Part shown: positions 41,609-42,847 of the stretch, piece by piece
How positions within the stretch are numbered: position 1 is the stretch's first letter
Layout: each line of letters starts with the position of its first letter
From: a phage
Reading direction: 5' to 3' (one strand)
Length of the DNA stretch: 64,000 nt
NCBI GenBank assembly: GCA_011884725.1
Contig: GCA_011884725.1_3919.1
Made by a program: the position numbers and the translations under genes
The notes under the pieces: generated by a model
Databases searched by the model: none
Seen by the model: only the letters and a program-made list of their open reading frames with translations
Told to the model about the DNA's origin: nothing

Positions 41609-41837
41609 AATTATAATAAGTATTTCAAAATGATGTTTTGAGAGGGCTATTTAGCCCCTCCCTTAAAGAGTTCTTACGAGTATTCTTTAAAGGAGCAGAA
41701 GACCAAATACAGCAAGAATGTATGATATTTTCAAGCCAATCCAATTTTGAAAAAATTTAAAACTTGGTCTGGCTCAACAAATTTACAGAAGACCGTTTAC
41801 AGCAAAACTTAAACAATCTATTTCTCGGTAAAGAAAA

Positions 41838-41892
41838 GGCGAAGGTTCGATTCCTTCACTCGGCAGATGTCGAGTTGGTGTAATGGTAGCAC
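41838..41892 (+). pseudogene. tRNA remnant: 3'-half-like T-arm segment followed by 5'-half-like acceptor/D-arm segment, no intact cloverleaf
   Basis: GAAGG-TTCGATT-CCTTC-ACTCGGCA then GTCGAGTTGGTGTAATGGTAGCAC; no complementary acceptor partner found in correct order. Confidence 0.4.
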
Positions 41893-42065
41893 TTAAGATG
41901 ATAAACAACGGTCTGGTAATTATCTTTGTAGATAAGTTATTAAGCTTACCTGTGAGTATGCGACCACAAAGGGTGAAAGGGTAAATTCTAGATTTAAACC
42001 CAAAAAGGCACATCGCTACAGACCTTAAGCAAGTCTGGGTAGCTTATCTACAAAGATAATTTAAT

Positions 42066-42145: not shown

Positions 42146-42222
42146 GGTTCAGTCGCAGATAAGGTAATGCAAGGGTCTCATAAGCCCTATGAATGTGGGT
42201 TCGATTCCCATCTGAACCTCCA
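42146..42222 (+). tRNA. tRNA-Met (anticodon CAT)
   Basis: Acceptor GGTTCAG/CTGAACC, anticodon stem AGGGT/GCCCT loop CTCATAA, T-arm GTGGG-TTCGATT-CCCAT, CCA. Confidence 0.75.
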
Positions 42223-42223
42223 A

Positions 42224-42299
42224 GCTGGTATAGTTAAGAAGGTTATAACACTCCCCTGATAAGGGAACATCGGTGGTTCGATTCCACCTACCAGTACCA
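42224..42299 (+). tRNA. tRNA-Ile (anticodon GAT)
   Basis: Acceptor GCTGGTA/TACCAGT, anticodon loop CTGATAA, T-arm GGTGG-TTCGATT-CCACC, A73, CCA. Confidence 0.7.
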
Positions 42300-42314
42300 A
42301 TTTCAATAAAGTTG

Positions 42315-42343
42315 TTGACATTGAGATGTGACTACTTTATAGT
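42315..42343 (+). promoter_or_regulatory. strong sigma70-like promoter TTGACA-17-TATAGT inside the tRNA cluster
   Basis: Direct read; followed by about 200 bp without ORF or tRNA before tRNA-Arg. Confidence 0.55.
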
Positions 42344-42545
42344 AACCTTAGTTTTCGTTGCGTAGCGTCTATTTTGCAAATTTAAAATAAATGCAAACGA
42401 CAATGTTTTTCTGGCAGTAGCTTGATAGGCTAAACACCAGTGAGGTCTTCCAATCCCTCATCAAAGAATTTGGCGTACTCGCCCACGGTATGATTAATAA
42501 GGTGGGCATCTTTAAGGGCTTTCTAAGAGAGTCTTTAAAGATAAT

Positions 42546-42622
42546 GCACCCTTAGTTCAATTGGATAGAGCAACGGTCTTCTAAATCGTTAGTTACAGGT
42601 TCGAATCCTGTAGGGTGTACCA
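42546..42622 (+). tRNA. tRNA-Arg (anticodon TCT)
   Basis: Acceptor GCACCCT/AGGGTGT, D-arm GTTCAATTGGATAGAGC, anticodon stem ACGGT/ATCGT loop CTTCTAA, T-loop TTCGAAT, A73, CCA. Confidence 0.8.
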
Positions 42623-42764
42623 AATAGTTAGCAGATTACTTAGACGGCCTTAGCGGGTCTTCCTGTAGGGAGGTGGTCTGTATCTCATGTTTTCCAGAAC
42701 ATGTAAATAATCTGAGAAGAAGCTTGACAGTGTTGAGATAACAGGGTAAGCTTCGAATTATAAT

Positions 42765-42847
42765 ATGGGACGATGTTAAGACTCTAAGGCATGAGCAACG
42801 GCCTCCAAAACCGTTTCAAAGGGGTTCAACTCCTCCGTCCCATGCCA
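42765..42847 (+). tRNA. tRNA-Trp (anticodon CCA) with enlarged D region
   Basis: Perfect acceptor ATGGGAC/GTCCCAT, anticodon stem ACGGC/ACCGT loop CTCCAAA, T-loop TTCAACT, G73, CCA; about 7 extra nt between acceptor and anticodon stem. Confidence 0.55.

Follow-up and report, generated by a model that had tools for sequence, protein, structure and literature searches.

What is encoded between two genes of a phage tRNA cluster where neither a tRNA nor an ordinary protein is predicted? The question arises at positions 42344-42545 of a phage contig (GCA_011884725.1_3919.1, GenBank assembly GCA_011884725.1), of which one strand of 64,000 nucleotides, hereafter the window, was analyzed. The window resembles Felixounavirus genomes, and the cluster around the segment comprises 26 tRNA genes; the stretch 42200-42700 shares 100% identity with Escherichia typing phage 1. 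An initial annotation, made from the letters alone, proposed a small RNA transcribed from its own promoter. Comparison with related loci makes it very probable that 42350-42545 on the plus strand is the gene for an RNA derived from transfer-messenger RNA (tmRNA) that lacks the tRNA-like domain and carries an arm antisense to ssrA, the host tmRNA. Together with SmpB, tmRNA is the main bacterial system for ribosome rescue and protein tagging. The phage RNA descends from the message half of that molecule.

The resume region and the tag frame link the phage RNA to tmRNA. The sequence AUAAAU followed by GCA (42387-42395) presents an alanine resume codon with U at -5 and A at -4, matching U85 and A86, the upstream determinants of the resume codon in E. 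coli tmRNA. The motif AAAUGCAAACGA, which occurs once in the window, is invariant in 31 of 31 representatives and forms the high-confidence part, at the resume region, of sub-threshold alignments to the Rfam families tmRNA (RF00023) and tmRNA_permuted (RF04321). From the resume codon runs the frame GCA AAC GAC AAU GUU UUU CUG GCA GUA GCU UGA UAG (42393-42428), encoding ANDNVFLAVA and two stops; the E. coli tmRNA tag, ANDENYALAA, is likewise 10 residues long. The initial annotation saw no plausible open reading frame (ORF) in the segment. That description stands for ordinary ORFs, the program-listed ones over the segment being of 21 aa on the plus strand and of 46 aa and 23 aa on the minus strand, but it misses this 10-codon frame of tmRNA type (42393-42425), which has no start codon of its own.

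Conservation of the tag frame is of the kind expected of translated sequence. Exactly 10 codons precede a stop in 131 of 131 copies, which represent 44 distinct ORFs, and the other two frames vary in length. Single-base codon differences divide into synonymous and nonsynonymous at 1231:1005 in the tag frame, against 61:2670 and 550:2026 in the others. Codon 10 specifies alanine through all four alanine codons, and codon 6 specifies V, M, F, Y or I, in every case a hydrophobic or aromatic residue, through eight codons. The tags elsewhere in the family include ANDDVVLMAA (lambdoid), ANEEMYLAVA, ANDEQFLAVA and ANDDLMLMAA, with ANDDLMMVAA in P1, and their shared chemistry, AN[DE]-polar-x-hydrophobic-L-x-[AV]-A, is degron-like. 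Judged by these substitution patterns, the tag frame is under coding-type constraint at the level of the peptide, which argues that the tag is translated.

The sequence around the frame is predicted to fold much like a tmRNA message domain. The plus strand of the segment has a predicted folding energy of -58.8 kcal/mol (z = -4.15; none of 200 shuffles folds as well), compared with z = -1.2 for the minus strand. Structure was tested on a 31-sequence MAFFT alignment, from which RNAalifold recovers two helices; the inner stem of helix 5 and stem B of the third pseudoknot (PK3), where gaps were misplaced, were left uncounted. In the named structure, which consists of helix 5, both stems of the second pseudoknot (PK2) and stem A of PK3, 94-97% of cells are paired, and for 13 of 19 pairs at least one sequence carries a change in both partners. 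Taken together, 91.7% of cells are paired, against 40-46% when the partner strand is slid, and cells with both partners changed number 98, against 7-18 in the slid controls. None of 500 shuffles reaches the observed value.

Each element has its counterpart in the window. The helix-5-like hairpin (42411-42440) has an outer stem, CUGG/CCAG, 94% paired and with two-sided changes in all four pairs, and an inner stem, UAGCU/GGCUA, read from the sequence; the first stop codon, UGA (42423-42425), lies inside its loop, as in E. coli tmRNA. A PK2-like pseudoknot follows at 42441-42473. Its first stem (UGAGG 42441-42445/CCUCA 42456-42460) is 97% paired with three of five pairs covarying, in 8-14 sequences each, and its second (loop CCAA 42450-42453/UUGG 42470-42473) is 97% paired with four of four covarying, through the forms CCGA/UCGG, CCAG/CUGG, CCAA/UUGG, CUAG/CUAG and GUCG/CGAC. 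The PK3-like pseudoknot (42474-42507) combines stem A (CGUACU 42474-42479/GGUAUG 42487-42492; 97% paired, two covarying pairs) with stem B (GCCCAC 42481-42486/GUGGGC 42502-42507) across a conserved crossing loop, AUUAAUAAG. Stem B is the hairpin that the initial annotation had pointed out at about 42479-42506; it exists, with its coordinates shifted as given here. Read by eye, stem B differs by lineage, as GCCC/GGGC, CCCUGA/UCAGGG or GACGGGAG/CUCCCGUC. The fourth pseudoknot is absent, and a plain hairpin stands in its place.

Upstream of the frame, a PK1-like pseudoknot of Felix type (42358-42389) can be drawn from UUGC 42358-42361/GCAA 42376-42379 and UAUUUU 42370-42375/AAAAUA 42384-42389. 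This reading comes from the sequence and from comparison with the AT-rich relatives L048, L145, L204 and L208, too few for covariation. The main type of PK1 is 79-90% paired with almost no covariation. The Felix-type PK1 overlaps the antisense arm, so that its folded and host-bound states would exclude each other.

The arm forms the 5' end of the RNA, where GUUUUC is invariant; apart from the resume region, no part of the RNA is more conserved. Its complementarity was assessed against an E. coli ssrA sequence verified beforehand. Block 1 of the arm, UAGUUUUCGUUG (42349-42360), is complementary to ssrA nucleotides 95-106, which comprise host tag codons 2-6; within it, UAGUUUUCGU (42349-42358) matches the reverse complement of ssrA 97-106, a part of the host tag frame, without exception. 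Block 2, GCGUCUAUUUU (42365-42375), is complementary with one U-U mismatch to ssrA 81-91, where the A-rich spacer with U85 and A86 is followed by GUC as the -1 triplet and by the first two resume-codon bases, G90-C91. Most other lineages have three blocks, UAGUUUUCGUC, GCGACU and UUUGCGG, that together cover ssrA 68-106. Host PK1 contributes its 3' strand to the complementary region, which further includes the spacer with U85/A86, the resume codon and codons 1-6 of the tag.

The Felix arm aligns with the reverse complement of ssrA 81-106 at a local score of 29, against 14.5 +/- 2.2 for shuffles, none of 500 scoring as high. Arms of the several lineages score 29-42, and for 13 of the 18 lineages none of 500 shuffles scores as high. 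The mean arm score of 76 representatives is 33.2, compared with 14.4 for the sense-strand control and 17.7 for the remainder of the molecule. In all 76, the arm fits host ssrA better than it fits the equivalent region of the phage RNA itself (24.9 vs 11.1), to which it is not complementary. The phage -1 triplet, AAU where the host has GUC, and phage codons 3-6 differ from the host exactly at the arm-complementary positions; moreover, codons 3-6 vary by lineage and the arm does not, as would be expected if its target were external and constant. The duplex predicted between the first 20 nt of the RNA and ssrA 79-125 has an energy of -13.5 to -18.9 kcal/mol. Nucleotides 1-6 of the Felix arm are predicted to be unpaired (P > 0.8), as are most of ssrA nucleotides 99-107, and the tag frame of tmRNA is established to be single-stranded.

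An alternative host target was also available. Three of the viral-contig loci contain a complete standard tmRNA with the tag ANDETYALAA (L250, 534-896; L251, 7989-8348; L252, 597-959), presumably a host ssrA captured at a prophage boundary, and this tmRNA served as a second sequence against which the arm was compared.

The position of the promoter agrees with an RNA that opens with this arm. A sigma-70-type promoter, TTGACA-17-TATAGT, lies at 42315-42343 on the plus strand (-35 at 42315-42320, -10 at 42338-42343), precisely where the initial annotation had placed it, and matches the consensus at 11 of 12 positions. Both strands of the window contain no other site within one mismatch of TTGACA-N17-TATAAT, and 0.64 such sites are expected by chance. 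One consensus match of this sort is not rare by chance, and the significance of the promoter comes instead from its conserved position before the arm. Among 85 distinct upstream contexts, 22, which come from two phage lineages unrelated to each other, have a promoter with at least 10 of 12 consensus positions at a fixed 7 or 12 nt ahead of the 5' motif of the RNA. The Felix-like loci, including the diverged locus L204, keep the arrangement, and TTGACA-17-TAGATT is found 12 nt ahead of the motif in siphovirus-like contigs from Klebsiella and E. coli. Transcription is predicted from sequence to start at about A42350, so that the RNA would open with the antisense motif.

The predicted RNA of ~196 nt (42350-42545, plus strand) would take its 5' end from the promoter and its 3' end from the neighboring tRNA gene. 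RNase P makes the 5' ends of tRNAs, and its cut at tRNA-Arg(UCU) (42546-42622, plus strand; ARAGORN and Rfam, 64.1 bits) would set the 3' end of the RNA. On the other side lies tRNA-Ile (42224-42299; ARAGORN and Rfam). Neither program calls a tRNA between these two genes, which bears out the initial annotation on this point. Three nucleotides before tRNA-Arg, the RNA closes with a 16-bp terminal hairpin (42508-42542, plus strand), the Felix counterpart of long-stem modules that follow the core of the RNA in other phages. Locus L090 has a longer version of this hairpin with a cargo insert. The hairpin is probably a processing signal or a stabilizer.

The tRNA-like domain that defines tmRNA was looked for in several ways. 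The Rfam search that the initial annotation had suggested as a check, run on seven family members and the window, returned the tmRNA families as the sole matches on the core besides tRNA, all below the gathering threshold. The core scores 12-17 bits against RF00023 (gathering 47), 15-31 bits against RF04321 (gathering 47) and 12-18 bits against beta_tmRNA (RF01850; gathering 84), the last over model positions 206-304, through the tag and the PK2 region. ARAGORN finds no tmRNA in the window nor in 25 related loci. Among 105 contexts run at default settings, it makes a single call, in L204, of a permuted tmRNA; its 3' tRNA domain is a homologue of window 41841-41867, joined to the core tag, and its 5' domain is wrong, being a fragment of tRNA-Lys. 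Lowered thresholds yield many permuted tmRNAs with random tags and are uninformative. A scan for a T-arm plus an acceptor with G3:U70 and A73 gave no enrichment (322 candidates in 350 kb vs 740 in 640 kb of control), and a search for miniature tRNA-like domains beside the core gave two isolated cases only. A promoter 7 or 12 nt before the 5' motif also implies a transcript that starts at the antisense arm and has no acceptor strand. Because a tRNA-like domain was tested for and is absent, and because no model threshold is reached, the RNA falls outside the tmRNA family in its present definition.

Unrelated phages share the core of this RNA. A sensitive BLAST search with 42300-42545 returned 596 phage records, of which Felix-like phages are 90-100% identical. 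Over 42384-42508, identities of 71-87% (E down to 1e-23) extend to Klebsiella siphoviruses, Ackermannviridae (Kuttervirus), Schitoviridae (Pollock, St11Ph5), and Aeromonas and Serratia phages; the non-Felix matches to this interval almost never coincide with an annotated feature. Two pattern scans located more than 120 loci in viral contigs. The first, with the 14-mer ATAAATGCAAACGA, collected mostly chance matches and some genuine tmRNAs, and was followed by a regular-expression filter and a rescan with a gapped pattern. A scan of one genome per bacterial species gave 23 matches, of which 6 are real, all in Enterobacterales (Rosenbergiella, Pseudocitrobacter, Rouxiella, Erwinia, Pantoea). The tRNA downstream of the core differs between unrelated phages, and some have no tRNA there.

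Plasmids and prophages carry the element as well. A lambdoid-type query matches 689 of 5426 complete E. coli genomes, at 589 places on plasmids and 150 on chromosomes, and the plasmids carrying it are ~70-120 kb among those listed. The one plasmid examined (L125) resembles P1 and has the element flanked by dmt and tRNA-Asn/Thr; the one chromosomal copy examined (L126) lies between the Q antiterminator and holin genes of a lambdoid prophage. In the P1 reference record (NC_005856; locus L225, 815-916) the core is unannotated, lies between dmt and trnA, and directly follows the terminator of an annotated 'dicF-like region'. It lies within the C1-controlled ban operon, downstream of the C1-repressed promoters P1ban and P2ban, and would be derepressed on induction along with tRNA-Asn and tRNA-Thr.

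Most non-Felix phages (L001, L021, L023, L029, L033, L096, L101, L126 and others) flank the core with one to three repeated modules. Each module has a conserved stem, CACAAC-A-GGUAAGAGCAUU ... CAGUGCUCUUUCCGUUGUGG, around a variable cargo of 45-70 nt, as at 2420-2490 and 2670-2785 of L126. Some cargos hold T-arms (GGUUCGAAUCC), and the positions of the modules differ between phages.

The tRNA cluster of the window contains further unusual elements. A circularly permuted tRNA-like gene (41841-41892, in the context 41760-42065) reads as a T-arm (GAAGG/UUCGAUU/CCUUC), a 3' acceptor strand (ACUCGGC), A, GAU, a 5' acceptor strand (GUCGAGU) and a D-arm; 3-8 nt separate the 3' acceptor strand from the complementary 5' strand in genes of this type. 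In L204, the permuted acceptor is kept by compensatory changes as ACCCUUC-G-CCA...GAAGGGU. The junction signature is confined to Felix-like loci, with 6 matches in 350 kb vs 1 in 1.5 Mb of control. Directly after the permuted gene, and 4 nt before tRNA-Lys, comes a hairpin whose 22-nt arms (41918-41939/42040-42061) are 95% complementary and enclose 100 nt, and whose stem covaries in L204. Farther along, tRNA-Ser(UGA) sits inside a 13-bp inverted repeat (42848-42860/42949-42961) that extends its acceptor stem, a module of 'stem plus cargo', and a hairpin with 26-nt arms (43113-43138/43178-43203) lies just before tRNA-Leu(UAG). Long stems of this kind, placed beside tRNAs, may serve in processing, perhaps as RNase III signals.

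Other sequences in these clusters resemble tRNAs. The stretch 42767-42841 is tRNA-like, with a Trp-like anticodon loop, CUCCAAA; it has no ARAGORN call and scores 23 bits against the Rfam tRNA-Sec model. In two Felix-like variants (L100, ~1915-1998; L090, ~2110-2195), a tRNA-like sequence without a D-arm replaces tRNA-Arg(UCU) after the core. It has the acceptor CGGGGCG/CGCCUCG, containing G3:U70, with A73, an encoded CCA and the anticodon loop CUUCUAA, and ARAGORN makes no call on it. In L090, an HNH endonuclease ORF is inserted just after this sequence.

How a message half might work without its tRNA-like domain can be pictured as follows. The RNA would be transcribed from its own promoter with its seed at the extreme 5' end, and RNase P, acting at the downstream tRNA-Arg, would release its 3' end. 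The arm would anneal to host tmRNA in competition with the PK1-like fold of the RNA itself. SmpB and a tRNA-like domain charged with alanine would come from the host molecule; the arm would cover the host resume codon and tag template, and the tethered phage RNA would offer its own resume codon in their stead. Rescued nascent chains would then receive ANDNVFLAVA in place of ANDENYALAA. Docking on host tmRNA followed by such a tag swap is a tentative proposal, which we hold at slightly below even confidence. Since the constraint on the tag implies its translation, and since no molecule but the host's offers an alanine-charged tRNA-like domain with SmpB, a bimolecular tmRNA built from host and phage RNAs is the most economical arrangement. 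That the product is a chimeric two-piece tmRNA, the arm annealing to ssrA 68-106, and that the tag swap is used by the P1, lambdoid, Felix O1-like, Vi1-like and N4-like phages of Enterobacterales alike, is a shade more doubtful again.

Several observations weigh against this proposal. A single 10-nt complementarity arises in 3-5% of shuffles; since single blocks are that common, the significance of the pairing derives from the colinear alignment of multiple blocks and its conservation, and L041, L086 and L048 retain the first block alone (7-11 nt). Host-specific covariation of the arm was not shown. tmRNAs with the tag ANDETYALAA (GAA ACC UAC) would present one mismatch to block 1, Felix-like phages of Salmonella carry a nearly identical RNA, and just four arms (UGGUUUUCGU) fit the ANDETYALAA tmRNA marginally better. 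The spacer between arm and resume codon ranges from ~17 to 29 nt, which leaves the geometry on the ribosome unproven. Conservation of codons 7-10 could stem in part from the structure of helix 5. A literature search gave no expression, processing, transcriptome or interaction data for the RNA, and we know of no precedent for a bimolecular tmRNA made from host and phage RNAs.

The main rival explanation, which we consider unlikely though serious, makes the RNA an antisense inhibitor or decoy that pairs with the message domain of host tmRNA and blocks it or triggers its cleavage, the phage tag never being translated. RNase III could cut the duplex of ~25-35 bp, and the tmRNA-like body could titrate S1, RNase R or the SmpB tail. 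Inhibition would put the antisense arm, the strongest new signal, at the center of the function and would need no tRNA-like domain. It also has a precedent in mycobacteriophage DS6A, whose tmRNA consists of the tRNA-like domain only, a similar molecule being reported to inhibit tmRNA (PMC4131195; PMC11915505). What inhibition leaves unexplained is the message itself: the exact 10-codon frame in all copies, its coding-type substitutions and degron-like chemistry, and a resume region that departs from the host exactly where the arm is complementary to it. A different and improbable solution would have the phage provide the missing half, the RNA being the message piece of a multi-piece phage tmRNA whose tRNA-like domain is supplied by a separate phage RNA, here the permuted gene at 41841-41892 and elsewhere the T-arm modules. 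The default ARAGORN call in L204 joins the homologue of 41841-41867 to the core tag in just this way, only Felix-like loci have the permuted junction, whose acceptor stem covaries (ACTCGGC/GTCGAGT vs ACCCTTC/GAAGGGT), and the best alignment of the core is with the two-piece beta-proteobacterial tmRNA, in its coding piece. Yet tRNA-Lys, tRNA-Met, tRNA-Ile and the promoter all intervene between the two elements, the junction (41841-41875) being 520 nt upstream, and the permuted gene lacks the G3:U70 identity element for alanine. Pairing between the core and 41609-42065 is no stronger than for shuffled sequence (RNAduplex -75.8, shuffled mean -79), and a 6-bp match found by eye, AGUUUU/AAAACU, is not kept in L204. 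The junction is absent from all non-Felix lineages, and the copies in P1, lambdoid phages, Ackermannviridae and Schitoviridae share no comparable tRNA-like domain.

Simpler accounts of the segment fare worse. Its place within a tRNA cluster, directly 5' of tRNA-Arg, and its scores below every tmRNA detection threshold would suit a passive tRNA leader or spacer, or a decaying fragment of a captured tmRNA with no present function. A passive remnant would hardly be conserved at 71-87% identity in unrelated phage families and different genomic contexts, nor would it be expected to keep four helices through compensatory changes, its tag frame intact in every copy and a conserved promoter, and we regard this account as very improbable. 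The initial annotation, which preferred an independent RNA to a mere leader of tRNA-Arg, is upheld by the same conservation across unrelated families, by the covarying helices and pseudoknots, and by the promoter. Scarcely credible is a conventional small protein gene, whether in the overlapping AUG frame (MQTTMFFWQ*) or in the 46-aa ORF on the reverse strand (42369-42509). Such ORFs exist mechanically, and some GenBank records annotate hypothetical proteins here. The AUG frame, however, varies in length (4, 6, 8, 11, 12 or 31 codons), shows the non-coding pattern of 61:2670 and has no visible Shine-Dalgarno sequence ahead of it; the fold of the reverse strand does not surpass that of shuffled sequence, and an ORF on it would read through covarying helices. 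Three other candidates were rejected. A minus-strand gene has a weak fold, and the reverse complement of the arm resembles ssrA yet keeps no reading frame between lineages. An attP or ssrA integration remnant is contradicted by the habit of integrases of duplicating the 3' end of ssrA and not its message region, by the lytic lifestyle of Felix-like phages and by helices that covary as RNA. The Pas small RNAs of lambdoid prophages are different elements, described in a preprint that makes no mention of tmRNA.

A literature search on tmRNA-like phage RNAs, P1, Felixounavirus and prophage small RNAs found no description of the RNA, and several known systems lend themselves to comparison. T4 species 1 and 2 (rnaC, rnaD) are non-tRNA stable RNAs in the T4 tRNA cluster that are released by tRNA processing enzymes and have no tag frame; we know of no sequence or structural relation between them and the present RNA. 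The anti-sRNAs AgvB and AsxR of enterohemorrhagic E. coli are lambdoid-prophage RNAs that base-pair with an abundant host regulatory RNA. They are short and Hfq-dependent, end in terminators and mimic mRNA targets, whereas the target of the present RNA would be tmRNA, and the RNA includes a complete message domain of tmRNA type.

The two-piece permuted tmRNAs of alpha- and beta-proteobacteria and cyanobacteria (RF01850, RF04321) offer a closer parallel, in that a separate RNA bears the tag frame and needs a base-paired tRNA-like partner. Positions 206-304 of the beta_tmRNA model give the best Rfam alignment, and the element CCUUGUnACCAAA after the tag is shared. A genuine coding piece, by contrast, opens with the 5' acceptor strand and D-loop and has its acceptor piece encoded just upstream, whereas the opening arm of the phage RNA is complementary to host tmRNA in its message region. 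One such genuine piece, of beta-proteobacterial type, occurs among the viral contigs (L032, 1-215; IMGVR_UViG_3300002161_000828, 85.8 kb), with an RF04321 score of 72.8 bits and the tag ANDAFFGGELRLVA, and ends at the edge of the locus.

With one-piece bacterial tmRNA (SsrA; RF00023), the phage RNA shares the U at -5, the A at -4 and GCA AAC GA, a 10-codon tag that starts with AND and ends hydrophobic and alanine-rich, one or more stop codons in a helix-5-like loop, a putative pseudoknot before the frame and pseudoknots after it. It differs in having no acceptor stem, T-arm, G3:U70 or CCA, in its length of ~200 nt vs 363 nt, in its 5' arm antisense to host tmRNA, and in its own promoter and adjoining tRNA genes. 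At minimum, these features define a new RNA family missed by ARAGORN, Rfam and PGAP, an unannotated message-half RNA antisense to the host tmRNA template in many well-studied enterobacterial phages, among them P1 phage-plasmids, lambdoid prophages and Felix O1-, Vi1- and N4-like phages. If the host tag is indeed swapped or blocked, the RNA would represent a previously undescribed phage manipulation of protein quality control; the swap would itself be a new mechanism and its product a natural bimolecular tmRNA. The old puzzle of the dependence of some phages on ssrA would then open to direct tests in P1 or lambda-type systems.

Phage tmRNAs have so far been found through the tRNA-like domain only, and mostly in mycobacteriophages. 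Among the surveys built on that domain, one lists mycobacteriophages and Bacillus phage G only (PMC4131195), and the accessible text of another counts 79 phage tmRNA sequences (PMC11915505); the available portions of the two name no Enterobacterales phage among their phage tmRNAs. Like the tmRNAs of cluster C mycobacteriophages, Bacillus phage G and DS6A, the present family consists of phage-borne RNAs of trans-translation. The DS6A tmRNA shows that a phage can retain one half of the molecule, there the tRNA half (PMC4131195; PMC11915505); the family described here keeps the message half and is its mirror image.

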